A DNA stretch of 64,000 bases from Girardia tigrina (Eukaryota), in the NCBI GenBank assembly GCA_001938485.1, contig MQRK01230191.1:23341-87340 (forward strand), written 5' to 3'. Both the position numbers and the translations under genes were made by a program. The notes beneath the pieces were generated by a model, which saw only the letters and a program-made list of their open reading frames with translations, made no database searches and had not been told where the DNA came from. Of this stretch, positions 1,868-58,836 are shown one piece after another. Positions within the stretch are counted from its first letter, which is position 1, and each line of letters starts with the position of its first letter.

Positions 1868-4800
1868 CTTTCAGATTTTTGACTTTTTGAGATAATTGAC
1901 GACTTTTTGTTCCTTTCGTGATGTTTGGGTTTATTGGTCCGGTGTTCTGGTATCGATGATGGACGATTATTGATTTGATTAGAGTACTGAAATTAGATTA
2001 AAAGTTATAATATGTGTAAAAAAATTATAACATGAGACTCAGACGTTTTAGAGAAATCAACAATTTCTTCTTCAATTTCACTGGCCTCAGATTCCGTACT
2101 GCTTTTGTCTAAATGTAATTTTAATTAATAAAAATTAAATATTTATTTCATATATATACATGATAAAAATGATTAAATTATTGTATTACAAACAGAAAAA
2201 TATATCAATATAAAAATTTAACCCACAATCCATAATACTACTTTCGTGAGAAGTCATGCCTATTCTGGTTATAAAACACTGAATAATTTCGATTACTTAA
2301 ATAATTAAAAATAGTGGGACATGTCTTTTAAAAATAAGACAACATTTAGAAAACCAATTTTTATTTTCATCTGGTATAACAATGCAATATGTATACATTT
2401 AATAAGTATATTGCCGCATAAATTGCAGGAACCTCCAGTCATCTCTGTAAGAGAATCTAAGAACACGGTCGTAAAGTTGGTGGAAGTAATATTGAAGAAC
2501 ACAGAAAGATTTGAAATTCAAATATAAATAAACATTAATAATTCCAAATTCCTGTCCACTTGTTTTAAAAATTATTGACAAAGTTGTCTGTGACTACATA
2601 TTAAACCCTTAAACTTTAAGAATAAAGTGAAACTGGTCACTTCACGACCTTATTGAACGCGTTTAGATGACATCATTATTCATTGATTTCACAATTACTA
2701 CGCAGATAAAAAAAATTATTATTTTCTTGACAACCTGAAGATGACGGCTATGTCGTCGAAATTAATTTTTGATAAAGATTAAAAATGAATTTCTAAATGG
2801 CATATTTATTTAATCAGCTATTTGTGTAAAATTTTGATATTTCAAATTTTAAAAAAATTAAAAGCTGAGCAAAAACATTTAATTATTATAATATCAATAA
2901 AATAAAAACTGTCTTTCAAGGTTTTTTCTTTGCGAATTTGACGTGAAACTTAATTTTTATCATTGTCAAATTCAAATCGTCTGTGAGACACATGGCATTT
3001 GTCTTAGCAACTCTCATTTGAAATGAGAAATCTTTAAATGCATTTTAAATATATCCAGATTTCTACGGGCATGATCAATATCAACGATGCACATGGTGTT
3101 TATTCACTTAATCGCATCACAGATAATCGCGTCACACTTAATCGGACTCAAATATTAGGGTGAACCAAAAGTCTTCGTATTTTTTATTAAAAATTTAAAC
3201 ATAATTTTACAACAAATAAAAAACATTTAAGTTTCAAAGTAAAGGCCATTTGAATCTATAGCTTGAACTCATGTATGGGCAAGTTGTGCGATCCCGCTGC
3301 GGTACCAATCCTTGTTCTTAGAAGAGAAGAACTGGTGACACCCGTTTTCGACCTCGGCCAGATTATTGAAGCTGCGACCACGAAGAAAATGTGCCATAGA
3401 GCGGTAAAGGTGATAGTCGGATGGCGCAAGATTCGGACTATATGCTGGGTGTGGAAGAAGTTCAAAGGCGTCGAAATTTTTGATTTTTTCCTTTGTTTGT
3501 TTGGCGGTGTGCGGTTTTGCATTGTCCTGTTGTAGAAGAACTCGCTTTCGATTGATCAAAGCGGGGTATTTCTCGCTAAGTGCCGCATACATTCGATCAA
3601 GTTGGGCGCAGTAAAGGTCATTGTCGATGGTACGACCATTTGGAACCAGATCGAAGTGAATCACGCCTTCGAAATTCCACCAAACACACAAAAGTGCCTT
3701 CCTTGAGAAACGATCTCGTTTAGCTACCGGTTTCACCATTTGTCCGGGTCTAACCATTGATTTTGTTGGTCTGGTTTACTGAAGTAAACCCACTTTTCAT
3801 CGCAAGTTACAATTCGACGGATGAAACGGTCATCGCGCGGATTTTCAAGCAATTTTTGATAGGTTTCGAAACGCTTTTTGGCTTGAATTTGTATCAATTC
3901 AAGAAAGAATATTATTAACTTATTTTCAGGATATTAATTAAAAAGATAACCTTCATTATAAATATTTATTTACTCGTAAAAAATACAGTTTCAAAAAAAC
4001 AAGTCCATTTAAAGTTTCTTCATTTAATTGATTCCGAATTTTTGTTTCGAAACTACCAGCTAAAGAGAATGTCCGCTCACTAGCTGTAGAAGTCGGTTGA
4101 AGAGTCATGAGAGCATTATACAATTTTTTAACATTTTCACTTCGCTCAATCCAGTGGCTTCAAATTTTTTTAATTCGCTTTCAATATCTTTGAAAGGTCT
4201 TTCCTGTAGCACAGATAGTAATGAATTAATTTTACATTGTATATCCGTATAAACAGATATATCTTCAACAGCCTCAGGAATTCCTTAAACTTCATCATCT
4301 TCTATTTCATATTAATGTTGGAAATTAATAAATAAGCGATTCCATATTTTATTCGCCAAAGATTTTACTGCAATTTTTGATGAATATGTGATTTCGGAAT
4401 GGGAATAATTTATTTGATTTTGGTATCTCTCGTTTTGTAAAAAAATGCAAAAGAAACTAAATTAATTTGACACCGTTCAGTAACACGTCTATGCAGAGAT
4501 TCAATCATTTCTTTTGAAAGACTAGTGTTTAGTTTGTTTAATTTTTTTCAATATAATTTTTTTGAAATAAAATTTTTATTTTTTGTAATACAATTATTAA
4601 TTTTTGAAATGCAATTTACGAATTTAAAATACAATTGTTATTATTTAAAAGACAATTTACGAAATTAAAATTCAATTGTTATTCTTTGAAATACATGTTG
4701 ATAATTTCAACTTGAAATGGTGTAGTAATCGGTTAATCGGCCCAAAAAGTCGATTAACCGAATTGACGAATATTAAGCAAAATTGGTGAATATCGGTTAA

Positions 4801-10800: not shown

Positions 10801-13800
10801 TCAGTTACAGATTAAACAAGAATTTAGCTCATTCTATAAACGTTGTGTTAGTACGCAAGATTCAAACTTAATCAGTAATATCAAAGTTAATATTTCATAT
10901 TTTCACTCACTTTTAAAATGGATTTAAAGAATAACATAACTTTATCATATCACTAATAATGCAGATCATGTATAGATATCAAACTTTTGGTAAGACAAAA
11001 CTGTAAATTGTTTTTAAATACAATTTATAAGGTACCGAATTATTTGGAGAAGGGAGTAGAATGTTTCATATTTCGATAAATAATAAATAAATATTTTTAA
11101 TATTAATAGTAATTGTAGTGGAACTGTTTTAAGTATTAAAATGATAATAATGTGATAATATGGGAAAAAATGAGTTATAGATTGTTAAAAATTGTTAAAA
11201 TGCATTAGAAATTAGTTATAATATTAAAAGGTTTTCTTTTTAATTTTTAAACGGATTTTTAAAGTCAGTTTTAAACAAATGATTGAGGACCAATAATGAT
11301 CGTGACACCTCAACACTGGTGTCAGAAGTGGGATAGATCGATAGAAATTACTCTAACTCCACTTTAAAATATTTTAAATCATGACGACTAACTCAAAAAA
11401 ACAAAGTTTCGAGATCAGGTGATAATAAACATTCGTCTTTTATCAACCAGGGAAATTTAGCTAAAAGCACCCCTGGAAAAATTTATTTTCAACTACCCGA
11501 TTTTTCATTTGATAATCGCGGATCACCCTCCGAATAGATCACCTAAGACCAAACTCCGAGACTCAAAAGGTGTTGTTGACGAGGAGTTAGTGAAGTTTTT
11601 TTTTCTTTCGTGCAATATATAGTAATGTCAAAGGTATATTACTATCAAATAGGGACATCGACTTAAACGCGTTAGGTACTCTCGTCGTCAAGCTTTTGGC
11701 TGGGATTGGACAAGACATCAATAATCTTCACGACAAGACTTGTGATACAAAAACCTGGTAAATAACTGTGTAAATTGTAATCTATCAAAACTTACCAGAA
11801 AAAAAAATTAAAACAATCCTTTTTGTTGAGATGGACAAATCCGAACACATCCCTATGGACATAACTGAACCTTTACCAGTTAACAAATGCTATAGATACC
11901 TCTTAACTATTGTTGACAGGAAAACTAACTGGTTCGAGGTCATACCGATGAAAGAAATTACAACAAACGCCATTTGTCAGATGTTTGAGAAAGAGTGGAT
12001 CGCTCGTCATGGACCTCCAAAAAAGATCACGACAGATCAGAGACGACAATTTGAGTCCGAACAGTTTAGAATGCTATGTAACAATTACAACTTTAGGAGG
12101 ATCAGAACCAGTCCATATAATCTACAAGCTAATGGCAAGGCAGAAGTGTTCCATAGGTATTTGAAACATACACTTCGTACTAAATGTACTAATGAAAATT
12201 GACTCCATTACTTTGATGAAGTTTGTTTAGTCCTCAGAGTGATGGTATAATGTCTATTCGCATTTATATTCATATTTTTACACATTTTGTCCTGAATTGT
12301 GGATGACTTGTGTCAGTCATTGAAATTAGTTTAGATTTAAAGTTTCAACTCTGCAACTGTAAGTAATCTGGATTTACACTGAACTTGAAAATATGGAGCA
12401 TTCAAATAGACAAGATTTGAAGTAGAGTACATGAGATAAAATTACTTTTATATAAAATACAGTTCTTGCAGTAAATTTACAACATTTTTAAACCTTTGAA
12501 AAACCTAAAGAACTTATTAGGTAACCTAATATTACTTCAGATAGATCAAGATGTTTTTCATACATTTTTAATTCATGTTATCATAAATTTAAAGATGTCT
12601 TATTTTTATTGTCATACAAAAATATAGTATTCATAACATTGGAATAAGGTGTGTCCACTAAAAAAGTGCACAAGTTTTAAAACCATCGTAACTTTTTAAT
12701 TTAATATTATTTAATTTCGTAAATTTGAAATTTAAATATTTGTTTTAATAGATTAGAAATAGTAAAGCAGGTATTTAAAATTTTTGGTTTTTTTATGTTT
12801 TATTTTAGAGACAATTATAATGATTTCAAAACGACAGGAAGATATAATCAATTTTTTCAAAACGCACGGTAAAAGTGAGACTGTGACAAAGTTTACTGGC
12901 ATTCATTTTTCCAGAAGAGGTATATATGCAATAATACAACGCTATGAGAAGACCGGCAGCATTGAAAGAAAAGTAGGAAGGGGAAGGAAACCTGTTAAAA
13001 TGACGTCAGACAAAAGGAAGGACTTCTGCAGCGTGCAACTTTGATTGTTGGACAAAGTGTGAGAAGGTTAGGTAGAGAAATGAATGTTTCAAAGTCTTAC
13101 GTGCATAAGATGCTCAAGACTAATAACATAGTGTTTCGAAAGAGGAAAGAAGCCCCAAAGGTTACTCCGATACAGATTATTCGCCAGAAAGCCAGGTTGC
13201 AAAATCTCGCTAAAATTGTTGTGGAAAAGACCAAAACCGACTTTGTACTTGATGATGAGTCGTATTTTACACTCACCGGAGCAATGACATCAGGTTATTA
13301 TGTGGACCAAAAGAAGTTCATGATGTACCTGATAATATTCGCCTTAAATTTCGAGAGAAATTCACAGTAAAAGTTTTGGTTTGGGCAACTGTTTCCAGAC
13401 GAGGCATTTCAAACCTGTACATCAGGAAATGGAAATCTGTAGCTTCTAATTCGGATATTTATATCTCCGAGTGCTTAACGAAGCGTTTGCTTCCTTATCG
13501 GAATGAGAAATACCCAGCTGGTCACTTCATTTTTTGGCCAGATTTTGCTTCTTGTCACTACGCCAACAAAGCAAGTCTGAAGTGCTTAGAGGACAACAAA
13601 ATTCCATTTGTCAAAAAATATTCGAATCCACCTTGTGCTCCCCAAATACGCCCAATTGAAAAGTTTTGGGCTCATTTAAAGGAGAAGGTGTATGAAAAGG
13701 GTTGGACTGCCGATTCTGAAGACCAGTTGATTCGCAGAATCAAAACTAAAGCAAAGCAGTTTAACAATTTATATTTTAGGACATTTTTTTGCAAATTTTA

Positions 13801-16800
13801 GACAAAGAATAATGCTTGCTAACTCCTTGCTATGGCCTTAATAGTTTGATATAATAAAAAAGTTATTGTGTTATTATGATCTAGTCTTTGTTCAGATTTC
13901 CGTCAATTTGAAGGTCTAATTAAAAAGTTATGATGTTTTTAAAACTTGTGCACTTTTTTCGTGGACACACCTTAGATAATTAATAAAATAGGCAATTTGA
14001 TGCTTAAAGATTATTAAAATTTCTAGTTTATATTTTTTAATTTTTGTACATTTGAAAGACAGTTCTTAATCTAGTGATAATTAGAGTTAATAATTAAATT
14101 TTCTATCAATTGACAAAAATCTGCTCAATGAAAACTTTATAACTATAATTTCTTAATTATAAGTTAATAAAACCTTCAAAATTTATGGCACAAAAAAGTT
14201 ATTTACATCACTCTTCTCATCGATTGAAAGCTTCCTTCTTGCTCGATTCGCCAATATTATTGGAGTTACTTCTTTTTTTACATCAGTCTTAAATTTATAA
14301 TTTTCAAGTAGTTCTTTTCTGATAATTTAATTTTAATTTAGTAAGAATCATAACAATTTATTTACCTATCAGAAGAATAAGTATTTGTTTCACTGTCATA
14401 TTCATTTGTGGAATTGGAGTAAAAATTATTTGGAAAAGATTTTCTCTGTTTAGAATGAGGATGATTAGATTTCACTAAAAAAAGTAAAATAAGAATTAAA
14501 ACAAAACTATTATAAAAAAATACAATAAAAACGAATGGTGGTTCTCATTAATTTTTTTGACAAAGCAAATCAGTTTCACCATTACGAGACATTCAGAGTA
14601 ATTAAAATAAAATGATTAATTGCTATTCATACATGTAGATGTGTTCTTTAAAATCGATAGATACTGGAGATATTATTTTGAATAAGATATTGACGGCAAA
14701 AACTACCGGGAAAATTTCATTTAAAGTGTCGGCAGTTGATGCGAATAAATCGACAGCGAGTGATGTGTCGAGTGAGACCGAGGTCGTCACTAACGTGGAC
14801 GCTATCAACGATAATAGACCGAAGAGTTTAAGTCGAATCGGACGTCGGACAACGGGTCTGTGTTGATGATTAGGATTCGAGAAAACGAGCCGAGGCAGAA
14901 GTTTGTGGAGATTAAAGTGAACGATGAGGATTTGAGTGATAATGGCAAGGTGAATTGTGAATTGAAAGAATCATCGGTGTTGGAATTGAAGTCGATTGGC
15001 AGTAAAGATCTCGATTTGCCGGAAGATGAGGATGAAAAGAAAAGGTTGAAGGAAAAGACACAGAATTGCAGATATTCATAAAAACGCTTTCTGTCAAAAC
15101 AATTACCTTCGATGTGAAGAATCGAGAAACAATAAAACACATCAAAGCAAAAATTGAAAACAAGGAGGGAACTCCAAGTACCCTGCAAAAATTATGGTTC
15201 ACTGGGAAAGTTTTAAGAGATGAAATGTCAATAAAGGAGAGCAATATAATCAAGAATGCTACACTTCATCTTCTGTTTTGCCTGAAAGGAGGCATGGAAA
15301 TGGATGAAGATGAATTAGATAGAAAAATGCTTTGCCGAAGGAGTTCAAAAGATAAATTATTACAATTAAGAAGCAAGCTTGGACATGCGGAAATATCAAC
15401 TGAAGAACTCAATAGAACGATGGTTTCGTACAACGAAAGCTATATTGAAGTGCTGAAGTATTTCGAATCAATGGCAATTAATCCCAAGCGGTTAAAGAAA
15501 AAGGAGTATAGCTTAATAATCGACAAGGAGTTGACAAAATTAGAAGATCAAAAGGAATAGGTGCTGGCAACTGCAAAGCAGAGATTCAACATCAATCATA
15601 AACAGATCAAAGAGGAGGAACGAGTGCAGGCGGTGGAAGATAGAATTCCCATAAAATTCCAACCGGTAACATTACCCAATTTTTCTGGAAATGTGGGTGA
15701 GTATGAAAAATGAAAGCGAACTTTCGAGGCATGTGTCGATTCCTCGAAGATGTCAGATATTGTGAAGCAAATAATGTTGGATCAATGCCTTGTTGGCGAA
15801 CCAAAGACATTGATCAAAAATATCGATATAACCCAAGAATCCTACAAAATGATATTGGCCAAATTGGACAAACGATATGGAGGTGCTCAGAGGCAATACG
15901 CCAATTTAATGAGAGAAATAAATGAGTTCTTTCCAGTGAGGGCAAATAAATTAAAGGACCTAGAATGTTTCGTAGGATTGTTGGAAGCTATTATTTCCAG
16001 ATCAGAGAATAATAACAATGAAGTGGAGATTGAAGGAGGATTACTATACATTACTTTGTTGGCAAAATTACCTAAAGTTTTAGTCGAGTGTTGGGAGAGA
16101 ACTCGCCTTTCAAAAGGAAAACCTCAGAATTTATCAGTTTTAAACGATTGGCTGATAAATGAGGTAGAAATAAAGCGGACCGCTGCGGAAGCTGTTCGTG
16201 GTATCGGCATATTTAATCCCAAAAATCGAAAGAAACATATTCAAGAAATATGTAGTGGAAAAACCTTTTTTTCAAAAGGAAGAAAAAAGAGCAGCTCAAC
16301 CTGAAAGAGAATTTGGAAGGACACTATGTTGGGATTTTCAAAAAGGAGTTTGTAGAAGAGGAAATGCGTGCAGATACATACACGATTTAACAAAGGAAGA
16401 AAGTCCAATCAAATGCAAATATTTCGAATCCGGCAATTGTAGATTTGGGAGTAACTGTAGAAACCTACACTTGAAAAAGGATGTTTTAAATTCAGATCAA
16501 AATAAATACACGGAAGGTAAAGAAGAGCGAAAAGACAAAACACCAGAAGGAGAGTTTAATCAGATTCCGAGTGGTGGGACATTTGTCACTGATCTCATGG
16601 AGGAAAATGAATTCTCTGTGTCCTTGAGAACTGTGAGGAATATTTTAAATTTCGTATGTTGAAATTGGTTTGTTGAATTTTGTATGTTGAGTTTAGTATT
16701 TGGAAATGTGTTTCTCCCACCCAGATGGAAAATTGATATTTTAGATGTNNNNNNNNNNNNNNNNNNNNNNNNNNNNNNNNNNNNNNNNNNNNNNNNNNNN

Positions 16801-19800
16801 NNNNNNNNNNNNNNNNNNNNNNNNNNNNNNNNNNNNNNNNNNNNNNNNNNNNNNNNNNNNNNNNNNNNNNNNNNNNNNNNNNNNNNNNNNNNNNNNNNNN
16901 NNNNNNNNNNNNNNNNNNNNNNNNNNNNNNNNNNNNNNNNNNNNNNNNNNNNNNNNNNNNNNNNNNNNNNNNNNNNNNNNNNNNNNNNNNNNNNNNNNNN
17001 NNNNNNNNNNNNNNNNNNNNNNNNNNNNNNNNNNNNNNNNNNNNNNNNNNNNNNNNNNNNNNNNNNNNNNNNNNNNNNNNNNNNNNNNNNNNNNNNNNNN
17101 NNNNNNNNNNNNNNNNATTATCAATTTAGAACGATGTCGAATGACGAGAGTTTCGCTGAGAGTTGTCCAAAAGACAATTCTGATTGTAATGAAAATAAAA
17201 GTTTGAAAAGCCATGTTGGTGTTCTTAATAAGAACCATTCCCGTTTATCTAATAAATAAAGGAAATCGACTCAGAGTGAACCTGTTACTTGATGACGCTA
17301 ACACAAATTCTTTCATAATTAAAAATGTGGTTGACAAGTTGGGTTTAGTCGGAGAAACCAAAGAAATGAAAATTCGAGTTTTAAATGGTACCAAATCAGT
17401 AAAAGCTGATAGAGTAAATGTTGAACTGAATTCCACAAATGGATCGTTAAGACAAAGACTGAGTCTCTTAATCGTTGATGATGTAACTGAGACTAAAAAG
17501 TGTGTGATTGAGAAAAAATAAAATGCAAATGGCCACACTTGAAAGACATTCCGTTTGAAAATTTTGGAAAACAGAATCAGATTGATGGGCTTTTAGGAGC
17601 AGATTATTTAAATCTACAATATTCTATGAAAGAAGTTCAAGGACGATTAAATGAACCAATAGCTCGATTGATACCGCTCGGGTGGACCTGCGTTGGTAAA
17701 GTTTCGACAGAGAATTCATAAAAGGAGCAACTTTATGATGTGCTTCTTTACTGGAGAGAGACAACATAAGTCACAGGAATCAAGCGAGGCAAGTCGATTC
17801 AGGGCACATAATGGTGAACGACAGTTCAGAAAAGACCGAGTCAATGGAGAAGACTATAATCGAGTCAAATATTTTAAGGGTCAATCAAGTGTTAACTTTA
17901 ATCAAATTTTAAATGCTCCTCCGTACAGTAATAAAAATGATTTTGAAAACAACAAAATGGGTTACTTGGATGAAAATTGTAAAAATCGAGAATACAGAGG
18001 ACGAGATTGTTTTAAGGGAGAAAGAGGATTGTGTAGAGATCAAGGTGATTACCGACGACCAAGAGACGATGATCGAGGCAAAAATGCTAACGAAGGATTT
18101 TTTAACAATATGCCATTCGACAACCGTGAAATACCTATTACTGAAAAAGAGTCGGATTCATACAAAGATTATGTCGAGGCATCAGTCAAAAATGAAGCAA
18201 ATTATGAACCGAATGTTGTGGAAAATGAAACTATTGATATGACAAAATCGAGTTGGGGAGAAATTGAAGATGATACTGTGAAAATAAAAACCACTGAGAT
18301 TAAATTCCTTGGACAGTGGAAGGCTCACCATGGGAAAGATCAGCTAATGAATCAGAATAGTAAAGAAATTCGAAAAGCTAATGATGGTCCAGATGTTTTC
18401 AGTGGAACAGAGGAATACAGAAATGAGAGTTCTACTAAAGAACATACTGATGAACATGATGCTCATAAAAATCAATACGGTCGTCAAAAGCAATCGCTTA
18501 AAATGTTAGTTCGTTTTAGACTAATATTTTGGCGAGGTGAGTGCAAGTGGTCATGGCGAGGAGAATGTGAGTGTTCATGGCGAGTTGAGTGCAAGTGGTT
18601 GTTACGAGGATGGTATGGAAGGACGCGGCGAGGAGAACACTGTCGGAACGAGCGAGGAGACGGCGAGCATAGAGGGTCAACAGAGTCAGGACAATTATAC
18701 GGTATTAAAATTTTTTTCAAACTTTACATACTTACTCATTCTCGATGACAATAAATGATTATATGAAAATTTGATCGGAAAAAACCTTTTAAGATCCCAA
18801 AATGGGATAAAAACGGAAAATTTGGAGTTCCAGAGCAATATTAATTGTAAGATATCTACTTATAATTTATAAGTAGTCTATATTATTTTTTTGTCTAAAT
18901 TAAAATTTTGCATTGTTTGTTAATGTTGCGGCAGTGTTTTTGAAGTGCCTTTTTAAAGATAACAACTTTGTAACTGAATGCGCTGATGAATAATGTCACC
19001 CTCCGTCAAAACACTCACTATGTCACATCTCTCGGCCCACGAATAATGGTTGTTCTATTCAGCATCAAAACATGAAGTGTCAAATAATACGGGTCACAAT
19101 TCACCATTGGCAAGCTGAGTCTCCATCTCGTGTGATTGTATGCGTGTGTGAGTGTAATCCATCACTGATTATTGTGCAATTACACTTTTATTTGTCCTCA
19201 ATTGCTGACAAATAAAGCGAAATTACGTGAAATTATTATTATCAAAATTAATTAATATTAAATTTTTATTAGTTTTTTAATTAAACTTTTTGAAATTTTA
19301 AAATCTTTGTCGGCAAAGTAGAGTTCTGTCTGCATAAAGAATGGATATAAAAAATTTAATTTTTTGATTTACTAGTTTTATATTGAAAAAATGTCTTCTA
19401 GTTAATTATTAATAAATAATTATGATTAGTTAAAGCAATAATTAAATCAAATAAAAGTTTGAAAAAACAAATAATTAAGATAAATCACATTAATCATTAA
19501 AATAATAATTATAGCTAAATTTACTCGAATGTTTTGGTTCAGAAAATCCTAAATTTTTTTGATCAGCTAATTTGGAGGACATTATCTTTTCGAGATTTTT
19601 CATTTTCTCCGACATTTTTATAATATTATTAAGAATATTGTCGGTTTGTCGATTAGTATTTATCGCATCTTTTATGTATTTTCTGCTTTCTAGATCGTGC
19701 ATTTGCAGTTCGTCAACAGTCATCGGCTCCCAAGCTGCCAATTGACGTTCTTGTTTGATCATTATAGTTCAATATTATAGATCAAGAGTTGTTAGAACTT

Positions 19801-25198: not shown

Positions 25199-28090
25199 TG
25201 TTGCAGAGAATGAATAACAGGTTCCTAAATTGTATGAAATAGAAAAAACACGTTTTTCACAAAATACCGAAATATTTAAACAAAATATAAAAATCGAATT
25301 AACGAGATTATTATTTTCGATTATCATCTCATCGCACATCCCCACCAGATTCGTCCGTACCCGAATCTTCATCTACGATGTAGTCATCCAAGTATTTAGG
25401 CCTTCTTCGCACACGCTTCATATGGGTAGTCGCTGGTTCATCGACTTCTAACTCTGTGTCCCAAGACAAAGCGGTGTTCTTCACGTTCTCGCATTCGACT
25501 CTTCTCGGCCGTAAATCAGCAACATGCCGAGGGAACCTCAACCCATTACAATCCCCTAAATATTTACAGTATGATAATTTTTTTAATACTTGACCCTTTA
25601 ACCCTTGTTGCGTGCACCCTGTGCTTCCCATTGGTTTCACCCAGACTAAATGATAGTCACAATACATTGTATCTTTTGTACTGCCCTCTATCTCATTGTC
25701 ACTTTTTTGGCTTACGGGTTTCATACATTTATAACTGTATATCATCCAACTCGGTGGTTCTTTGTTCTCCGACGGCGTATTGTTGTACCACCATACTGCT
25801 TCTGCAATTGTAATGTTTGATCTCGCCGCAATTCTTTTGATCGTCCTATGATTTCTTTCAACGATCCCGTTCCCACCAGGTCGATTGCTCGCTCGATGAA
25901 TTAACTCTACTCCCCATCGATTGCTAACCTCAACAAACTCCTTTGAGTAAAAAGTGGTGTAATTGTCTACTAACAATTCGCTGGGGGCTCCGCGTTAAAA
26001 AAATATAGAATCTATTACCGTGGAGATGGAGTACGAACTTTCGTCACCAATTTCTTTCCAAATTGCAAATCTGGATGGTCCACAATCGATTAAGCTTAAA
26101 TACTTCCTGTCGTTGTATTTTGTCACATCGATTGCCAATCTATACCAATTCTCCCTTACTGCACGCAACCGTGATTCCATTTAACCGGTGCGGGATCAAT
26201 TAACTGGCATTTTTGACATTTTGAAATCATGTTCGTGATATCTTTATCCGTTATTTGAATGTTTTCAATCCCACAGAGAAATTTCATTCGTTTCGCTTCC
26301 AAATGGCATTTCTTATGAAGGTTATCTAATCTTTCAATTTCACTTGTCGTGGCCACGCAGCATACATTTTTAGTTACTGCCTTCGGTATCCTGGTCATCT
26401 CATCCGCTTTATTCAGACTACTCGCTACGAACTCTATCTTTATCATTATGTTAAAATCATTACAAATTTCCTTAATGATTGATAACCGCCGTCTGATAAG
26501 CAATTCTGAAAAGGCGCTCGTATTCAACCTAGATTTACTTGTGATCACGTCATTCACCCAGGAGACTACTGATTTATTGTCACACTTTATCATGATGTCC
26601 GTCATTCCCCATTTCGCGCACAAATTAAGCCCTTTCACGACCGCTTCCAGCTCAGCGATATTTATATGCCTTTAATCGTCTTTTTTCCTCAACCATGACC
26701 CGTCTTCGATAATTTTACCATTAACCTCAAGTAATACACCCATCGCTATTGAACTTGCATCACACCACAAAGTGCCCACTTTACAATCGCCGATGCTCCA
26801 CGTGCACGACATGGGTCATTTTCTTCTACCCTTTCCAAAATCCATTTTACCTTCTCAACCACAGATTCGTCCACCGGCGAATCCCAATCCCCCACCGAAG
26901 TTCGTTAGAGGAAGGAACACGCCAATCGTAACCATAACGCTATGGGGTAAATGCCAGTGAGTTTCCCACACAGAAAATAAAGCTCTCGTCGCGACATCGA
27001 TTCAGATAAGTCTTTGACCCGTATTCGGTTCGATCGGTTCCACATGATGCTCCCGTCAATGTTTTTAACATCCACTCCGAGAACTCTTACTTTTCTGACA
27101 TCATTTACGCGCTCGGGCTGTTTGCACTCTAACCAAAATTTCTTGAACAAACATCTCACTTCATCCGTATTAACCTTGAACTCATCTACAAAAATATCAT
27201 CAACATAGGATCTAGTGGCAGCAATAATCGTTTGATCGGACGACAAGACTTTTCTCACAATTTCTGTCATGATGGTAGGGGCTGTATTTAGACCGAATCC
27301 CATCCGTGTTAACGCGAACTTTTTTCCGTTGATAATACATGACTGAAACCGCCACATGGTGGGATCAACATGAATTTGCATGTATGCATCAGATAAGTCC
27401 AAAATTGCAAAACTGTCACTCTTCCTTCTCCACTCACGTAACTTTTCTACACAAACGTCCGAAGAACCGCTGTAAACATCGATATATTTGTTCAATTCCA
27501 TGAAATCGAACACAGGTCTTATCTTATCCTTATTCAACTGGGCTATACCATAAATTGGGATCGACCCCACTGACGTGCCCATTTTCTCGTCGTCATACTC
27601 TATTAAGTACCCTTTTTCCATCCATTTATTTAAAATATCCATCGTTGATTCGTCTTTTGGTTTTGACTCTTTCAATACGGTTTTTTTCCACGGTAACTGA
27701 TCGGGGACATCCGATTTCCAATCCCAAGAAACTGTCCACACTTTGTCGAAATGAATCCTGAAATTATGTTTCTTCGTGCCTCCCTCTTCAGTAATTCTAG
27801 TCCCAGATAACTCGTCACTTGGACCCGACTACAAACATTTACTAGATCGGAATTCACCCCAAACTTTACACTTCCATTATGGAACACCATTCCTCCTAAT
27901 TTTGCAATCACATCAACACCCAACAATAAATCCAAATTTTCCGGCAACGTATTCATTACAATGCAATTTTCGGTTACCTCTTTATCATCCACATTGATCC
28001 TTGCTGTACCCACAAACACTCGAGACTCATTAGCCAGATCGCGTATTTCAACATCTGTTCCTTGAAGTTATCTAAGGATATGACAGGAGG
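25199..28090 (-). mobile_element. Ty3/Gypsy retrotransposon (PR-RT-RH-IN, 3' LTR 25199-25338), decayed
   Basis: LDLSDAYMQI, GFGLNTAP, SYVDDI; RNase H WCDASS..AELEAV..CDNKSV; integrase LVDN..GNGIVERNHRTIK; purine tract GGTGGGGA then a 140-bp TG..CA LTR. Confidence 0.92.
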
Positions 28091-29901: not shown

Positions 29902-31182
29902 TTAATTTAAAATGTTTTGTTTTATTTCCATATCGCTACATGGAAGAAGTTTTGCAGATTCTAAAAATTTCAATGATTGAGCATAGTTTGCAAAGGATTT
30001 GTAGCAAAGCGAAATAAAATAATGATTTTCGGCGTATGTATTTGGTGCCAGAACTTCACACTATTATCACAATAAATAATAAGTTAGATGTAAATTATGC
30101 TTTACTTTTTGAAAACACTGGAACGCTTCTTCAATGGTCGAATTTGGAGGAGTTTCAAAAAGCAAAGAAGCTAATTTTCTTTCAACAAATCGTAGATTAC
30201 AGACCTAATTAGATAAAATGAAAAACATTATTTTTATAAAATAACATGTCATTTATATAAAAAAAGTTTAACTGTATTAATAAATTGAATTTCAAATATC
30301 TGTTCAAGAGGTACAAATAAGTATTCTATTCATCTTTATTTATCCTTAAATCCACATCCTTAACTCATCATACAGTTCCTCTGAGTTTTTTTTATTCAAT
30401 CATCTCAAGTAATCCCAACGTTATCAAAAAAGATTTACAATCAATGAACTTCTGGACGACAAAAGCTCAAATTTTATTTGAACTAGTTAAGAGTTTGTAA
30501 AAATATGTGACGGCTTTTAGAAACATAATTGAACCAAAAAATTCTATTTGTTTATTATTATAGATAAAAAGTTATTTTCAGATTGTCAAAGGTATTAAAT
30601 TTATTTATTAGGCAGATCACGTATATTCATAATTGAAGTTTTGATTTACATTTATCTAAAGCACTGAAGATAAGTAGCTTCTCTTTCGAATTTTAATAAT
30701 CTTAAGTCATGTCATTTCATTATGCTTACATACCTAATTAGACAAACGACGGATAGTATCAAGATGACCAAATATGTGTTAATATTATAAATCCAAAAGG
30801 GTGTTATTTATCTTCGATATATTAGATTAGGCATATTAAATAACATGTTTAATTAGAAAAAATTGAACTTTTGCAAAATGAAATTAAACTTCGGTATTAA
30901 GTGTCCCCGTACCAACCAACCGTAGATAATCTTTCGATTTTTTATTTATTCAATAATTCTCTATAAAAAAACTTTGAACTTTTTGCAAAAGTTCAATTTC
31001 ATTGTAAAAATGCTATATAATGGACTTGTGACTGTGTTATCTTTCTTAATTTTCTAATTAAACGTATTTTTTAATTTCATTCCATAACTTAACAGTACAT
31101 GTCAATGGTCAAAGAATATCAACATTGAGAATTTAAATAAAGGATTTTTAAATTTAATTAGGCTACTGTTTAGACTGGTCAT

Positions 31183-31223
<41 letters not shown>

Positions 31224-42397: not shown

Positions 42398-44239
42398 AAT
42401 GGTTTTAGTTTTATAAAAGTTTCTCGAAAAAAATGACAAAAATAATAGTAATTACAAAATAATGCATGTGTTTAAATAATATGTTCTTGTGCACTTTTAA
42501 ATAATTTTTTTCATAATAAACTTACAGTTCAAATAGACAATGGAGATCGTTAAGGTATGTGAAGTGGATATTATTTCTACAATTCCTCAGTCTACTACCC
42601 ATTCACACTTCTTTTACATTGATTACTTAAATACAAGTGCAATCTGTAAGATATGTCTTACCAAATTTGAGTATCACCAACAAAAGACGGGCACCCGTAG
42701 TTTGAAACGACATCTGGATAATAAACACCCGAACGTGTCCAGTGCGAAAGAGAAAACTAAGTCAACTTTGAGTCAACAACATTCTACTCTAATATCCTGT
42801 GGATTTATTGAACCTCGTACTAAAAAGTGTCATATTGAAATATATTTAAAGTTTTAAAAAATCTTTTTTTTTCACTCGCATGTAGTCGCCATATTCTACC
42901 TCTTCAATTCTTTGAAGATATAATCAATGCCAAAGGCTTTGGTCTGCCTTCAATCAGTCATCATGATGTTCGAAATGAATTGAGGAAAGTGACAGTTGAA
43001 ATTAAAAGTGATTTGATGGACAAGCATCGTGATGAGTGGGCATCAATTGTGCTAGATCGTTGGAAAAATCATGTATCCCGCCACAAACATTTAACAATCT
43101 TATTATTTTTCTCAAATGAACCCACGAAACCAGTATTTTTGCAGAGTGTCTTGTTACTTGACAATAGTGCACTGTCAATTTCAACGTGTGTATTTGATGT
43201 ACTGAACAATTTGGATTCTTGTGACATCAAGGTGATCAGTGCTATTACCGACAATGTCAGATGTATGGTTGCCGCGATGGAGCTCGTATTTCAATAGCGC
43301 CCTACCATGTTGCCTCTAAGATATGCTGCTCACAAAATCAACATTATAATTAAAGATGTGTTGAAAAATTTTGATTTCATAAGAGTTGGTTTTCAAATAC
43401 TCTCGAGCAACATAAAGTATTATAAAGCGCTCTTGTGAAATCAGATGGAATAGTGCCTTCGATCGTTTTATAGATCTGGTGAAATACCTTCGGAGACAAG
43501 ACTGGCTATCCAATTCTGATATGCTTGTTGGCATTGAAGCACACAATATCAGCTTTGTCTCCTTTCATTGATGCACTTAATGTTGCTCAAAAGGACGGTT
43601 GTGATTGGCTGACGTTGTACAATGAGTTCTCCAAAGCAGTAGCAAAGACCTCTGAATCCAGTCGGGACCCCTTGGCAGCGGGGGCTGAAAATCGCAGATA
43701 TTTACTACTGTATCCAGTTGTTCCCCTTGATATGTTTGTCAATGAGCAAAAGCAGTTATCTGAAGCTTTTGAAGGTAGGCTTCACTAGTGGTTGGAAGCA
43801 CTTGGAGTTCCTAAATTCTATCAATACGTTTGTGAACGCGAATTTCATTCAATTGCAATTATTCTGAGGCGATTACGTCTATTTATAGAACATAAACTCA
43901 AAACGATACTAGTATCCGAGGCAGCTGTGGAGAGGTGTTTTAGTGTCCAAAATTTTATTCATTCTCCTTTGATAGCGAGCATGTCCAATGAAGTTGTGGA
44001 TGACATTATTTTTATTCGATATAATAACTCCTTTAAATATGACATTTTCTCTCCATCAATTACTGAAGAATGCAGTGAATTTGATTGTCTCGCCATTGAT
44101 GAGGATGATAGTGACAAGAGAAATCCTTTTTTTCTTTTTTATGTGGATTTTGAAATAAGGATTTATATTTAGTTATTTTGTAATTACTATTATTTTTGTC
44201 ATAGTTATAAGACAAAACTTTGAAAAAACTAAAACCATT
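42398..44239 (+). mobile_element. hAT transposon (BED finger to dimerisation domain), pseudogenised
   Basis: CKIC..LKRHLDNKH; ITDNVRCM; EIRWNS; SEAAVERCFS..IFIRYN; ~65-bp inverted repeats at 42398-42462 and 44173-44239. Confidence 0.9.
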
Positions 44240-51300: not shown

Positions 51301-52895
51301 TGCCCCGAGAATCGGACGGAGGTAGCGTCATTGCGCAGTAGTTCTTTGTTAATATCGTTCGTGTGCTGGGCCCATGTTAGAAAAGGATTATTTGAATGGT
51401 TTATTTTTGATTTATACACTTTTTCAATCAATTTTTAACCAAGGTAACAATCAAGGTAATAATTAATGAAAGAAAAAAATCAGTTAAATTTTATTTCTTA
51501 ATTATTAATTTTATTTAAAATAAAAGGTCGTGAGGATATATTATCCCGTCGCCCACGTTAAAATTAAATAAGTTACTAAGTTTTTACCTTTTCTGTAATT
51601 GTTACATAAAGATAAATATACCTTTTTTTAAATAATTTCTTTTGTTTTGAATTAAATCTATATCCTTATACATAAATTGCGAATAATTACCCAATACCCC
51701 AACATTAAAGTGACCTCAATATTCTTGACTTACAACTTTAAAATCACATTTAAGAAGCACATCGAAGGCAAATGATAGATGCTTTTGATTGAATGAGGTG
51801 AAATCCATTTCTTCAAATCCTGATCTTGCCGTCGAAAAAAGCTACTTTCGGTGCCGAAATTTCCGGTGTTGATTGAGAAAGTTTTACAAAAATTCAACTT
51901 CTTTCTTTCATTTTCGAAATTACACTGACATTCATTTTATTGTCTGATTGTAGTCACCATTAAAATCAGAAGAAATAACCATTTACAAAAATGAGGTATT
52001 TTTGACAGTAACTAATGATTATTTAAATAACCATCTAACTTTTATTTGTTTTTGAATGATTATTTTTTATAAATATAACATCGTAAATATCCATCCAACG
52101 ATCCACACATGAGGTTTTAAAATGTAGAAATCTCCCCGCAACATCATCAAAACCATAATTTTCATGTTTTGCCGCCATTAAATTTGGAACAAATGAATAA
52201 GAATAATCATTGAATTTCAGTAATCTATCCATCTATTTATCCCTTTCTATTGGCGAAAGAAATCATTTTAGATATGTCTAATAATAGTCAAAATAAATTA
52301 AAATTTATATTAAAAATTTTATTAAATATTTCAAATAAATTAAAGACAAAAGTCGTCATAAAAATTATGTAGGAGCATCGTAGTCGAACAAGAATATATA
52401 TAGAAGGATAAAATGAATTAATATAAAGCAATATAAAATAATATTAATATAAAATAATAATTAATAATATTGTTAGGTATATTAAAAAATATGAATTAAA
52501 AATAAAAGTATTTTGTTTTAATTAATTGATAAATAAAACTTTATTTATCCTTCTACTATAATAAATATAGAGTATTGGAGAAATTCAATAATTGTATATA
52601 TAATTAATTGTAACTGAAATTAAAATTAAAGAATTATATATATTTATAAAAAAATAACTGTTATAAAGAAAGAAAAATTATTACAAAAAAAATTACTTTT
52701 GTTAATTGTTAAGAAAAAAAAGAGAGAAAAAGAAACTTATAAAAAATATTATGTAAAGAATTATATTTGTTATAATGTGTTAAATTAAAATTACAGTTTT
52801 GATAACCAATAAAGGTTTAATAAGGATATCGATTTTTTTAATTATACTAATAAACAAATTATCCATCAGAATATTGTATAAGATACCATTTCAAC

Positions 52896-53300
52896 ATGCC
52901 TTGGCTTTTAACTAGGGAACTTTACGTTAATGGATCTCAAAAATTAATGATAAATGCATTTAAATTGGCAATAGCAAGTCAAGCTTTTTGGAATCTGTTG
53001 CAATCAGTTGGCAGAGATGGAAAATTGAATTTTAACTGTGATCATCCGAAAGACCTAGAAATAATACTTCGATATGCTCATATCGGCGAAGTAGATGTGA
53101 CTCGTCAAAAGGTGGAATATCATGTTCTATATACGAACGAACAAACTGTTACCGAACACAAACAAAGAGACCTAAAAATCTCGGAAGAAATCAACCAATT
53201 AATGGGCGCAAGAAATACGGTCCTCTTAAGGACCACAATTGACGATTGTAAGCTGGAGTTTTGGACTGCATCCTCATGGACCCGGGTGCTGGTGATTAAC
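52896..53300 (+). pseudogene. Divergent BTB/POZ-like ORF
   Basis: AFKLAIASQAFWNLL..DLEIILRYAHIGEV resembles the BTB pattern vLaa.S.yF..l..ll.y.YtG.i. Confidence 0.5.
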
Positions 53301-53332
53301 AAAAGTAATTTTCAAGTAAATAATTTTCCAAT

Positions 53333-53350
53333 TGGTAGCAGAGCGTGGTT
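53333..53350 (+). promoter_or_regulatory. Primer-binding site for initiator tRNA-Met
   Basis: CA-AT-TGGTAGCAGAGCGTGGTT. Confidence 0.85.
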
Positions 53351-53458
53351 GCTCTGTTGGGAGCAACCGCGCTCGGACCCGCTCTATCTTTCGTCGATAG
53401 AGTGTTATTTAATATTTAATAAAATTTATATAATATATATATATTTATTTATAATAAA

Positions 53459-54200
53459 ATGATTGATAATAAGGACTTAAACGAATTGTCCATCAGTAAG
53501 AGCGAAATGTTTTCGCCGGGGCAATTCTAATCGGAAAGCGTTATCGAAGAGAATTTTATCGATTGCGGTATAAAAGACGTCGCGAATGTTCGATTGAGAC
53601 CGAACATTTCGACATTGAACTTACACTGTAATTCAATCATTGTTATTAGAGAATTGGATAATCTGAGTAACTTGAAGCATCTGGATTTGTCGTCGAATGC
53701 AATCACGAAAATTAGCGGTCTCGATTCACTGATTCATTTGAGAATGTTAAACCTAGCGGTGAATCGAATGATAAAATTGAAAGGATTGTCTCAATTGCGA
53801 CAATTGGTTAAATTAAATGCATTGTATAATGAGATTAGTGATCTAATGGGACTTAATGAACTCGCCAATACTCGCGGACAATCTTTGGCGTCCCTTGAGT
53901 TACACGCAAACAGAATCAGATTAACCAGTGATATCATAATAGTTTGTCAGAGACTCGGCAATCTTAAGATATTGATTCTGTGCGATGCGTATTCCAAAAA
54001 TCCAGTCTGTGGGACACCAGATTACCGACAAAAAGTGTTTTCAAGTCTCCCTCATCTGCGAATCCTCGACGACAGAGACAAGAGTGGTAAGTCGGTTGAC
54101 GTGAAAATCCTATCTGATAATCCCGGACTGGAACAGTTCATGGATTATCTCTCCAGCTCAACTGATCAATGTTCAGAGTTTAATTCCACCGTTAAAAACC
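53459..54200 (+). pseudogene. LRRCC1: Intronless N-terminal LRR region of LRRCC1/VFL1, in frame with Ub-Gag
   Basis: FIDCGIKDV..LNLHCNSI..LKHLDLSSNAITKISGL..LELHANRI..NPVCGTPDYRQKVFSSLPHLRILD..LEQFMDYLSSS follows the LRRCC1 N-terminus; in-frame ATG 53459, one TAA at 53528. Confidence 0.8.
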
Positions 54201-54343
54201 ATTTCAATGAACAAAAACTGATAGGATGGATTGGGAAAGACATGAAGCCTAAAATCATGAAAGTGAAAATAACAACAGTCAGAGAAAATGAAATAAAATA
54301 CGACCTCTTTGAAGATGAAATTAATTCTGCTGGGAAAAATCTC

Positions 54344-54568
54344 ATGCCCGTCTTCATTCGATTGATGGATGGACGGATTATAAGCATTGATGGGGCTGTC
54401 AACACGATAGCAGATATTAAGGAAAAAATATGCGAAAAAGAGAGAGTACCCATTCATTTTCAACAATTGATATTCCAGGGGAAGTTTCTGGAGAATAACC
54501 AGTCAATAGTTGATTGCGGTCTCTCCAAATACGCTACAATTGAATGTGTGGGGAAATTGCTGGGTGGA
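54344..54568 (+). CDS. Ubiquitin-like domain (75 aa, ends LLGG) fused to Gag
   Basis: MPVFIRLMDGRII..TIADIKEKI.EKE.VP..QQLIFQGKFLE..TIECVGKLLGG|M. Confidence 0.9.
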
Positions 54569-57500
54569 ATGGATCTACCAGAAGAGGAACCACAGATCAC
54601 TCTGGAACAATCAGGGCAACTCAGTNCAATGAANTTNCGGAAGTTGGTCCGACAAAAAGGAGAAGACAAACGGCAACTAACCTTGGCCTATAAACGGCTA
54701 TTGGATTCTGACATCTCTAATGTACAATGGTGGGGTTTACACCAGGAATATCAAGATAAATACGAAGATTTATTGGCAAGTTTCAAGGTACTAATGGAGC
54801 ATTACGATCATGTCGGGGATCTGGAGAATGCGAACAAATTGCAGGAAGAGATGGAGAAACTGGACCAGAAAGAGGAGGCGGTGACGGTTTTATATGAAAA
54901 ACGAATGCAAGTGAAAGAAAAATTAACCTCAGGACGGGAATCAAAAAAGATACATTCTCTGCAGAAGTCAGAGAAAGTAGATTCGGAGGATGCATCATCC
55001 AATATCTCAGGAGATTCTGTCAGCTCTTCGAGAAAAAGGAGGAGCTTGGCCAGGATGGAGCGCATCCAATTACCCGTATTTGGAGGAGCCAACAATGAGT
55101 ATGAAGCTTGGAAAGCGGCCTTCAAATTATGCGTGGATGAAACCTCCGCATCGGATCACGAGAAGTTGTTGTACCTGAGGAAATAAACAAGCCGAAAACG
55201 TCAGTAATAATAGACAAGAGTCAATGAACGAAGGATAATGGACATGTTTCCGATATCAAAATAGCCATTGTAATCATAAGGACTGCCGCTATCAGCAAGG
55301 GAAAGAACCAACCGAGCGATCGGAGTGTTGGTTTTTTAAGAAAGGAAATTGTCGAAGAGGAGATAAGTGTTCCTTCATCCACATTCAACCGACAGATAAA
55401 GGCGAAAAGCCAGTTAATATTGATGGGAACTATTCGGGAAGATCGTTTTCTGGAATGACGCAATCGAGACAGTTGGTGATTAAGCAGATCAGTATCTGCA
55501 ATATAAAGACAAACGGGTGTTAGCAAACGCCTTACTGGATGCCGGCAGCTCTACTAGCTATGTGAGTGAAAATATAATGAGTTTCTTAAAAATTCAAGGA
55601 AGACTAAGACAGCTTACTGTGGATACCGTCGGAGGCCGGGAATCAAAGTTACAAGGAAAACTGGTGGAGGTAGCATTAGAGAGCACGGACGGCAAAGTGA
55701 GGATTAGTTTCGAGGCTCTGGCGGTAAAGAATGTAGTCGGCAATTTGAAGGTGGTCGATTGGCAGTATGAAGCCAAACATTGGGAGCATTTGCGAGCTGT
55801 CAAGTTTCTGTCGTTCCAACACGGGAGGAAGGTGGATGTATTGATTGGAGCTGATTACCCGGCATTACACGAGGTGATCAAGGAAATAAAAGGAGAAGTA
55901 GGAGAACCAATGGCCACTTTAACACCTCTCGGGTGGACGTGTATAGGTGCAGTTGCAAAGACATCGATGAGCAATGATTGTAGGTACTTCGTTCGCAGCT
56001 ATTTTGCGAATAGAAAATATCTAGATACCCAGTTGGAAAAGTTTTGGGCGATGGACGAGCTTCCTGAAGCAAGTCAACCAACAATGTCACCAGACGAACA
56101 GAAAGTATTCAATTATGCGAACGTCAACATCCGGTACATAGATGGGCGGTACGAGATACCAACGCCCTGGCGAGAGGAACGCGATAACATACCGTCCACT
56201 CAAGGGTTGGCTGAAAGTCGCTTATCATCTTTGATGAAAAAACTAGCGAAGGACGAAGATCTAAAAGTCAAATATTCCAAGATAATAGCGGATCATCAAG
56301 CCAAAGAATACATATCAGAGGTGGAAAAGAATGGGAGCGGGAGCAGCGAATGGTTGTTACCACACTTCCCGGTTGTACGTGATGACAAAGAAACCACCAA
56401 AGTGAGGATTGTCTTCGATGCAGCAGCAAAAGTATCGGGCCGGTGTCTTAATGACTATATTCATACCGGGCCGAAATTACAAGCTAATATTTTCGCGGTG
56501 CTCTTACGTTTTCGGAAGCACCAGGTGGCAGTCATCTGTGATGTAAAAGAGATGTACCTTCAGATTGCGATACCAGAAGTAGATAGACCATTTCATCATT
56601 TTTTATGGCAAGTGGATGACGAGTTGAAGAAATTTCAGTTTAATCGTGTGGTTTTTGGAGTCAATGCGTCATCGTTTATGGCTCAATTTGTAAGCAAAAA
56701 CAACGCACAACAGTTTGCAAAGGAATTAGATAGAGCGAAAGAGACAATCTTGAAATCTACATATATGGACGATTGTATGGACTCCGTTTCAACAGTGGAA
56801 GAGGCCATTGAGCTAGTACGAGGATTAACTGAGATTGGGGAACATGCTGGAATGGAGGATCACAAATGGCTTACTAACAAACCAGCTGTGATGGAGGTGA
56901 TTTCAGTGGAGAAACGAGCGAAAGAGTTTCTATTAGAAGAAGAGTCGGAAGTTGCAGTCAAAACACTTCGGTTGAAGTGGTTAGCGTCGTCTGACTGTTT
57001 CACATTCGACGCATTGTCTAAGTTGCCTACGAAGATCACCAAACGTACATTCCTCAGTACACTAGCGAGAATATTTGACCCACTTGGATTTTTGGCTGCT
57101 TTTGTAATTCGAGCAAAGGCAATTACACAGAACATGTGGTTAGCCGGCGTAGGCTGGGACGATATACTCGCACCGGAGATCAATAAGGCGGCTCAAGACT
57201 GGATTTCAGAAATTCCTTATTTAAAGGATGTCAAGATTGACAGGTGTCTGATGAAGAGTGTGAGCAAAGAGATCGAGGTGCATTGCTTCGCGGATGTGTC
57301 TCAAATGGCATACGACACAGTTGCCTATTTGCGACAATTAAAAAATGGGTTATATGAAACAACAATAATAGCAGCGAAGAGTCGTGTTGCACCGTCCAAA
57401 GCGGTGAGTATACCGCGGTTGGAGTTGATGGCTGCTTGTTTAGCAGCACAATTGGCGGAAAAAATAACAAAGGCGCTGGAATTACCAATGAAGCAAGTGA

Positions 57501-58836
57501 CATTATGGTCCGACAGTTTTGACGTATTATTCTGGGTGCGAGAACAGTCAAGACGCCATAAGACGTTTGAAGCTAACCGAATTGGGACCATTCAAACGCT
57601 GAATCAGGCGGAACAGTGGCAGTACGTTCCGACGGAGGAAAATCCATCTGATCTGCTATCACAGGGAGTATCAGCGAAGGAGTTAACGGAACGTGAATTA
57701 TGGTGGCATGGGCCTACATTCTTAAAAACGACCGAAAATTGGACTGTTCAAAATGTGGAATGTCATTTTGCTCATAAGGAAAGACGAAAGAACGTCACAT
57801 TCTTCAATCAGGTAGAGTTGCGACAAGACAGGGTGTACAATAGATCAATGTGAAATCCAGAGACGTTTTCAAAATGGATGGATTTCGTACGTATACGGGC
57901 TTGGTGAGACGGTTTTTACATTGTTGCCGAAACAGAGTACGTTCGAATTCCAAAGAGCTAACGGCGGCCGAATTGGAGAAAGCAGGATCAGATATAGTCA
58001 AGGACGATCAAATGAAGTATTTGGGTACCAGCGAGAAGAACATTGACTGGACACGAAAAGTGAAATCAGATCATCCGTGGGGAAAGATGACGCCTCGGAA
58101 AGATGATTTTGGAATAATTAGAAGTGATTCTCGATTAGAGCTGCAAGGCAATTTCGAGTGGGAATTTCGACATCCAATCTTACTAGTTCCAGGATCGTGG
58201 GTCACACATCTTATAATTGGTCACTACCACTGTCAGAGAAAGCATTGTGCAAGAGTGAATCAACTATTTGGTGAGATTAGTCAGAAGTATTGGATTCCTA
58301 AATTCAGACGCGCGATCCGTAACTATGAGAGCAAGTGTATGGTTTGTCAAAGAAGGACAAGAAAACCTTTTGAAATCGTGATGGCACCGCTTCCAAAATT
58401 TCGATTGGAAGAGGGCGCTCGAGCTTTCCTACGAATAGGAATCGATTTCGCGGGACCCTTCGTTACATCAAATAGAATAGATAAGTCTTTAAATATCTAA
58501 CAGATTTGTATCGTGTACATAAATAAATACATTTTTGAAAATATAAACCTTCGTGTTTTGATTTCCTGTTGAACTATTTTATAAATCACCAATATCCCAA
58601 CAATACACACAGTGAAATAAAATAAGACTGGATTTTTAATACCGGAGCTGGGTACGTCCCTTACTTTCAGTATAGCGTCTCATGCTGAGTTAAGATAAAT
58701 TTTTTTTAAATAAATGTCTCATAAATTAATATATTAAAATTTATAATTCAATATTTATTAATTATAAAAATGAATGAAAGTTTTTATCACTACTTTTATA
58801 AGTGAAACAGAAGTATTTGTTAAAAATAAAGGTTTT

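Follow-up and report, generated by a model that had tools for sequence, protein, structure and literature searches.

A ubiquitin module ending in Gly-Gly precedes Gag in nine sampled lineages of BEL/Pao-type retrotransposons of Girardia tigrina

Cellular ubiquitin captured inside a viral polyprotein has been described for the cytopathogenic pestiviruses BVDV Osloss, CP1 and CP Rit. There the inserted ubiquitin sometimes lacks its first residues, can have a piece of another host mRNA ahead of it, and is cut by cellular UCHs, which provides the downstream protein with an authentic N-terminus (PMC8310069). According to the same account, these insertions are sporadic, occurring in single strains of an RNA virus and before NS3. 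Pieces of host mRNA, also of several genes and often in frame, are likewise found in LTR-mediated retrocopies, which are young host-gene insertions (Tan et al. 2016, PMC5131818). Among flatworm LTR elements, the giant planarian Gypsy elements Burro/GYPSM1 (>30 kb) carry captured domains including a Ubi2/SUMO-like motif; their Gag is N-terminal, their UBL internal, and section 7 of that report describes no GG-Gag junction (PMC6431247). It is therefore already known that LTR elements capture genes, that viruses use ubiquitin as a processing signal and that planarian Burro elements contain a UBL. BEL/Pao LTR retrotransposons are characterized by short LTRs, the order PR-RT-RH-IN, a DUF1759 Gag, Peptidase_A17 and a length of 4.5-7 kb, all shared with the elements described here, and the main text of the survey of this family does not contain the word ubiquitin (PMC3118150).

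The BEL/Pao-type elements of G. tigrina analysed here do carry ubiquitin. They resemble the pestiviruses in the ubiquitin within a longer protein, in the missing first residues and in the host pieces ahead of it, and cleavage at its end is predicted. Unlike in the pestiviruses, the ubiquitin is a fixed module, present in at least nine LTR-retrotransposon lineages, at identities to host ubiquitin down to 36%, and positioned before Gag. Unlike the LTR retrocopies, the captured host pieces fill a standing slot before a conserved module of cleavable type. Our literature search, which covered titles and the beginnings of abstracts of papers other than Repbase reports and those in subscription journals, found no Ub-Gag arrangement in BEL/Pao elements, and found captured ubiquitin as a cut-site before a downstream protein for some cattle viruses only.

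The window, that is the whole analysed stretch of 64,000 nucleotides of contig MQRK01230191.1 (positions 23,341 to 87,340), contains remnants of two such elements, A and B. The features of element A are as follows.

14641..18698 (+): remnant of element A, a decayed, LTR-flanked, Pol-less subfamily of BEL/Pao type, both ends missing (DNA identity to copies)
14641..15065 (+): leader derived from a cadherin-repeat gene, frameshifted in the window copy (three-frame reading; homologous stretch of copy L072, Pfam Cadherin E=1e-8)
15066..15293 (+): Ub-A, ubiquitin-like, 76 codons, without Met1, ending LKGG (alignment, Pfam, predicted fold)
15288..15296 (+): Gly-Gly/Met junction A, GGA GGC ATG, with Met at 15294-15296; predicted cleavage site
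15294..16304 (+): Gag A, a helical N-terminus followed by DUF1759 (reading frame; Pfam E=8e-11)
16312..16470 (+): two CCCH zinc fingers (Pfam zf-CCCH E=1e-10)
17207..17720 (+): aspartic protease region, broken (Pfam Asp_protease_2 E=8e-4, below cut-off; tblastn)

Element A is 88-93% identical in DNA to copies L071-L076 over 14641-16631 and 17231-18698, and LTR pairs of its relatives are seen in L073/L074 and L075/L076. The protease region is followed by a non-Pol tail common to other A copies. Pol is present in A copy L080; the window copy of A, like a number of other A and B copies, has none. The intervening 16632-17230 is an insertion, partly an assembly gap, whose 115-bp end recurs at 46830 and 60066. 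Two A copies have an ATG some 10 nt short of the 5' LTR end (L075:7895-7935, L079:7612-7655); in L079 its frame runs open for about 100 codons across the primer-binding site, and in both copies its continuity to the ubiquitin is broken.

Element B has the following features.

52582..58470 (+): remnant of element B, BEL/Pao type with Pol, ends approximate (Pfam, tblastn, copy comparison)
52854..53462 (+): captured leader piece resembling BTB, also present in other B copies (Pfam BTB, E=0.0055, which is below cut-off; tblastn to L062, L064, L065, L067)
53575..54222 (+): piece of a leucine-rich-repeat host gene, without introns, in the frame of Ub-B (Pfam LRR_4 E=5e-9)
54344..54568 (+): Ub-B, ubiquitin-like, 75 codons, ending LLGG (alignment, Pfam, host comparison)
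54563..54571 (+): Gly-Gly/Met junction B, GGT GGA ATG, with Met at 54569-54571; predicted cleavage site
54569..55186 (+): N-terminal part of Gag B (frame translation)
55326..55382 (+): CCCH finger (direct reading of the frame translation)
55484..58470 (+): Pol, comprising protease, RT (YMDD), the Peptidase_A17/RNase H region and a truncated integrase (Pfam)

The Pol of element B matches Peptidase_A17 (E=4.5e-45), RVT_1, DUF1758 and Integrase_H2C2 and is 41% identical to that of database protein P0004. Contigs of 1955 and 2752 nt (runs X1 and X6) match the leucine-rich-repeat piece at about 92% and then diverge in its continuation. In Pol-less B copies (L070:402-1532, L062, L063, L068) the Gag frame runs on into a captured piece of CCDC149 (Pfam E=3e-22), and the database relative P0017 runs into a CFAP58 piece; capture is thus seen at the 3' end of the ORF too. 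Both window copies are broken: element A by frameshifts before Ub-A and by in-frame stops in Gag at 15558-15560 and 15711-15713, element B by a stop at 55184, next to 55185, where about 0.5 kb of the Gag present in copy L050 is missing. When RNA runs were searched for expression, no run matched half of the query words. One RNA-library contig spans the B junction at a depth of about 6; multicopy DNA could explain it, so it was not counted as expression.

Elsewhere in the window we observed a broken RT element at 25329-28067 (-) with DUF7047 and RVT_3 matches, and transposon remnants at 3269-3775, 11774-12202, 12766-13801, 31163-33492 and 42839-43297 (mariner-type transposase, integrase cores, one RT and a DUF659 piece). 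At 60744-61403 and 61654-62231 there is a Tau95_N-like reading frame (E=9e-20) adjoining a 287-bp inverted repeat of 96% identity.

Ub-A and Ub-B each lie directly 5' of a helical segment that runs into the DUF1759 Gag. Ub-A aligns with ubiquitin without gaps and matches the Pfam ubiquitin family at E=5e-19 (Ub-B: E=5e-14). A preliminary description of the window gave Ub-A about 50% identity to ubiquitin, all seven canonical lysines and the substitutions I44W and R72C; our comparison agrees, with 38/76 residues identical to host ubiquitin and K6, K11, K27, K29, K33, K48, K63, W44 and C72 all read in the window copy, together with Leu at position 1 and Lys at positions 42 and 74. C72, carried by 4 of the 31 sampled A copies, is a minority state (Gly in 19/31) and is ruled out as a trait of the family, and K48 is replaced by Leu in 10/31. 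Ub-B is more diverged, as had been described (27/75). Both domains are nearer to host ubiquitin than to NEDD8 (30/76 for Ub-A, 24/75 for Ub-B) or FUBI (18/76 and 16/75) of the same genome (references L132, L298 and L131, the last being FUBI-S30); an origin from NEDD8 is accordingly not favoured. The named proteins nearest to this FUBI-S30 come from flatworms. The structure predicted for Ub-A and the residues that follow is a beta-grasp fold, a low-confidence linker at GG and then the Gag helices; the mean pLDDT is 85.7 and TM, calculated for the length of single ubiquitin chains, is 0.90-0.96, in a prediction for Ub-A only whose input alignment holds host ubiquitin.

The tail of Ub-B, TIECVGKLLGG, had been likened to that of FUBI/FAU, which in human reads TLEVAGRMLGG. 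This likeness did not extend to the host protein. The host FUBI tail is TVDVEVSLKGG/K, its identity to Ub-B is the 16/75 given above, and FUBI forms the longest, separate branch of the ubiquitin tree, which together rule out FUBI as the source of Ub-B.

Several features place the elements in the BEL/Pao family. A DUF1759-type Gag is present in window A and in B copy L062 (E=3e-13), and the Pol order PR-RT-RH-IN with Peptidase_A17 in window B and A copy L080. Direct repeats of 223-317 bp, 88-97% alike, surround five of the nine copy pairs examined and are not intact in the window copies. A purine tract lies ahead of the 3' repeats in copies, and the repeats fall within the 0.2-1.2 kb of BEL/Pao LTRs. 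In the four clear repeat-flanked cases the element is 4.5-7.1 kb long. BEL/Pao Gag typically has three CCHC-type knuckles. Such knuckles are present in P0004, of lineage E2; lineage A differs in its CCCH fingers, which in window A stand in tandem in place of the knuckles, the same swap as in P0017, and window B has one CCCH finger. The closest relatives lacking ubiquitin (P0005-P0007) differ in that their Gag begins with its own Met. In a Gag tree built with unnamed DUF1759/Peptidase_A17 relatives, we found no supported split of the ubiquitin-less relatives from the ubiquitin-bearing lineages, and the ubiquitin tree was largely without resolution.

We searched the 1.43 Gb genome with A and B and obtained at least 150 matches with A (the best 150 of 2,520 candidates scored) and at least 151 with B (the best 150 of 1,789 candidates scored). 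A set of 319 loci gave 288 distinct ubiquitin-like matches; of the matches assigned to element lineages, we removed 31 that fell short of full length and retained 226, of which 219 fall into nine lineages (A 31, B 33, C 28, D 26, D2 11, E 25, E2 16, F 34 and G 15 copies). This sample consists of top-scoring matches, which favours intact tails. Median identity to host ubiquitin ranges from 36% (B) to 96% (G). Ub-A and Ub-B thus belong to two of nine sampled lineages with the layout captured leader, ubiquitin, GG, Gag. The segment after GG can be aligned across lineages into DUF1759, so the junction is homologous. The leaders differ in kind (cadherin, coiled-coil, BTB, LRR and HSP90-family pieces). 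HSP90-family pieces stand before the ubiquitin in lineages E, E2, F and G and in P0018 (L100, L139-L146, P0004, P0018), and B leaders (L062) hold a different HSP90-family piece. P0004 joins HSP90 piece, ubiquitin, Gag and Pol in a single frame; a 2052-codon frame in L054/L061 was discarded, being mostly assembly gap. Of 159 database proteins examined, seven have ubiquitin or a ubiquitin tail directly before such a Gag, two of them 93-95% identical to lineages D and E2 and five divergent (34-48% where measured). No Ub-Gag was found in the other examined proteins, many of them partial; four were polyubiquitins.

The preliminary description had also held that GG followed by Met is conserved in both domains. 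In Ub-A and Ub-B it is present, and the Gly-Gly part holds beyond them; Met is the following residue in seven lineages, Ser takes its place in F (33/34) and G (15/15), and the five divergent database relatives have Ser or Gly, so that Met is excluded as a conserved feature. With Ser after GG the junction offers no start codon, and Gag must either stay fused or be cut free. Met1 of ubiquitin is absent from six lineages, A included, where translation must start upstream. Neither the ubiquitin nor Gag thus has a universal start of its own. The copies that have decayed least show open frames of 100-500 codons 5' of the ubiquitin, and the leader codons beside it are near-neutral (shared dN/dS 0.76 in 124 copies; three shared stops, all in D). 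Across lineages, the part that is kept is a ubiquitin fold carrying L-x-G-G in a constant position ahead of Gag.

This arrangement suggests that host deubiquitinases probably cut after GG, giving Gag a defined N-terminus and discarding the leader. The ORF would be translated through leader and ubiquitin, a host USP or UCH enzyme would cut after GG, the freed Gag would start with Met or Ser, and the leader-ubiquitin piece would be mostly waste. The dependence of deubiquitinase cleavage on the last glycine is illustrated by G76V, which blocks it (PMC7047443). Recognition is predicted, and not assured, for Ub-A, whose weakly constrained body carries W44, and for Ub-B at 36% identity.

Conservation of the module was examined between lineages. 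GG is kept in 189 of the 219 sampled full-length copies. Only 13 of the 76 host residues are kept in at least 60% of the copies of all nine lineages, namely F4, G10, I13, K27, I30, E34, P37, Q41, K48, K63, L73, G75 and G76. Eight of these we take to be residues of the fold, the rest being K48, K63 and L73, G75, G76; among the other four glycines of ubiquitin G10 alone is kept across the nine lineages. The two surface lysines are part of this set, K48 being found in just 20/31 A copies. The glycine codons turn over synonymously between lineages (GGA or GGT at 75, all four at 76), and the five divergent database relatives end in LRGG/S, LRGG/S, LRGG/G, LKGG/S and LYGG/S. In lineage F an upstream ubiquitin tail or a whole second ubiquitin is present in 19 of 34 copies; GG is kept there in 0/19 and next to Gag in 32/34. 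An upstream RLRG/RLRV remnant, likewise lacking GG, is present in E and E2. This upstream comparison rests on about two ancestral events. In the di-ubiquitin F copies L208, L217 and L221 the older ubiquitin ends Gly-Ser (with the Gly codon a stop in two) and is followed by a near-host ubiquitin ending GG/S.

Within families the picture differs. The proposal that GG is better kept than its neighbours across family copies was not borne out: non-Gly cells amount to 23/360 (6.4%) at positions 75-76 against 69/766 (9.0%) at other ubiquitin glycines (p=0.16, no significant excess in a test of low power), and to 25/237 at Gag glycines. Per site, GG shows 0.23 shared non-synonymous changes and the ubiquitin body 0.19. 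Private changes have a dN/dS of 0.66-1.0, which implies that most within-family change is decay after insertion and that the within-family test is weak. For shared changes dN/dS is 0.34 in the ubiquitin body and 0.46 in Gag, as against the leader value given above, and 0.72 in the Ub-A body; the lineage D figures of this analysis are inflated by two mis-binned near-identical copies, which were removed for the glycine test. An E subclade multiplied with Val75 (four tallied copies, 1.4-3.4% apart except for a tandem pair), pairs in A and C are possible common losses of GG, and GG is found in 0/3 old B-like copies, which have many stops. We also observed that, within families, the GG codons have nearly no synonymous variation (over 18 columns there is 1 extra codon, versus 28 over 38 columns for other ubiquitin glycines), which could be due to mutation bias or to a nucleotide-level constraint.

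These data bear on whether GG is selected at all. It could simply have been inherited from polyubiquitin mRNA with its GG/M junction and reset by repeated re-capture, as the GG/M of both host polyubiquitin and the host NEDD8 precursor (L298:970-1245), the re-capture found in G, F and E (see below) and the non-significant within-family tests would allow. We consider this improbable, since lineages A, B, D and D2 keep GG at 36-51% identity to host ubiquitin and with synonymous sites saturated against it (as they are between A and B), and since upstream junctions captured in the same way lost GG. The claim of selection on the di-Gly thus finds its backing between lineages, in nine of nine lineages, five of five relatives, the codon turnover and the upstream loss, and not within families; selection between lineages is likely, short of formal proof.

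A second question is what the cut would serve. The preliminary description suggested that released ubiquitin variants might be conjugated or act as decoys, so that a variant charged by E1 and conjugated, or occupying the host ubiquitin or NEDD8 enzymes, would be the working product. E1 needs GG as well, K48 and K63 are among the 13 kept positions, R72 is kept in six lineages, and phage selections showed that the NEDD8 E1 tolerates Q72, the residue of D2 (PMC3731359). As reported there, however, UBA1 substrates require Arg72 and Arg74 besides GG; UAE strictly needs Arg72, NAE rejects Lys72, and a non-native residue 74 blocks E2-to-E3 transfer. R72 is lost in A (G/C72), B (K72) and D2, and R74 is kept in F and D2 only (2/9), with K74 in A and L74 in B, so that A and B have both arginines replaced. 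Moreover, the L8/I44/H68/V70 patch and R42 vary freely among the nine lineages, and in the six lineages without Met1 the product would be leader-ubiquitin and not free ubiquitin. The proposal is therefore poorly supported and, in our judgement, unlikely.

The ubiquitin might instead stay attached, or be a folding or expression aid or a degradation tag, with any cleavage incidental. The main set of kept residues is indeed that of the fold core, small clades multiplied without GG, and K48 is kept. But such a role gives no reason why L73, G75 and G76 are kept while 72 and 74 drift, and the ubiquitin is internal, behind the long leader frames of the least decayed copies; chaperone-type ubiquitin fusions have ubiquitin at the N-terminus. 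We give this explanation only a small chance. Cutting near the junction by the element's own aspartic protease, in place of a host enzyme, appears highly unlikely: the elements do encode one, and Pol-less A copies retain it, yet Pol-less B copies have no protease and still keep GG. An intact beta-grasp fold with LxGG is the signature of host deubiquitinases, and retropepsins prefer hydrophobic junctions. Cleavage by host deubiquitinases is thus the reading we prefer, based on a layout present in nine lineages, a kept fold core with L73-G75-G76 and a nearly unconstrained leader.

Codon comparison with host genes addressed the origin of the module. The preliminary description held that Ub-A and Ub-B may be independent acquisitions; between the two, synonymous sites are saturated, and a common or a separate origin may apply. 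The ubiquitin of lineage G matches unit 1 of a single host polyubiquitin gene at 81% of its codons, against 46-51% for the other two units of that gene and 29-43% for nine other host units; sharing with host polyubiquitin is 64% for E and 63% for F. By comparison, the Gags of G, F and E are 23-28% identical, at 36-38% codon identity. Host-like ubiquitin codons combined with distant Gags imply that the Gags had long separated when the ubiquitin, or a leader-ubiquitin cassette, was replaced. These patterns show that the younger lineages G, F and E repeatedly re-acquired ubiquitin at the same slot, from one host polyubiquitin gene. The end of the leader in four F copies is that of G, although Gag identity is 24%. 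Such replacement is consistent with template switching onto host mRNA, through which LTR retrocopies capture host transcripts (PMC5131818).

We tentatively extend this to a broader proposal, which we hold as possible and with some reserve: a whole clade of flatworm BEL/Pao elements may leave the initial step in maturing Gag to host deubiquitinases, the ubiquitin module acting as a recombination hub and the N-terminus as an open slot that takes up captured host genes as cargo. The module would remain homologous to the polyubiquitin mRNA of the host and to its counterparts in sister lineages, so that leaders and ubiquitin units could be swapped there. Should this hold, the capsid protein of a retrotransposon lineage matures only with the help of host deubiquitinases, and the stability of the cleavage module would explain how constant in-frame capture of host mRNA ahead of Gag is tolerated. 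The elements would also present a natural series of ubiquitin variants, 36-96% identical to the host protein and apparently selected for cutting and not for conjugation, which could map the minimal determinants of precursor processing by deubiquitinases.
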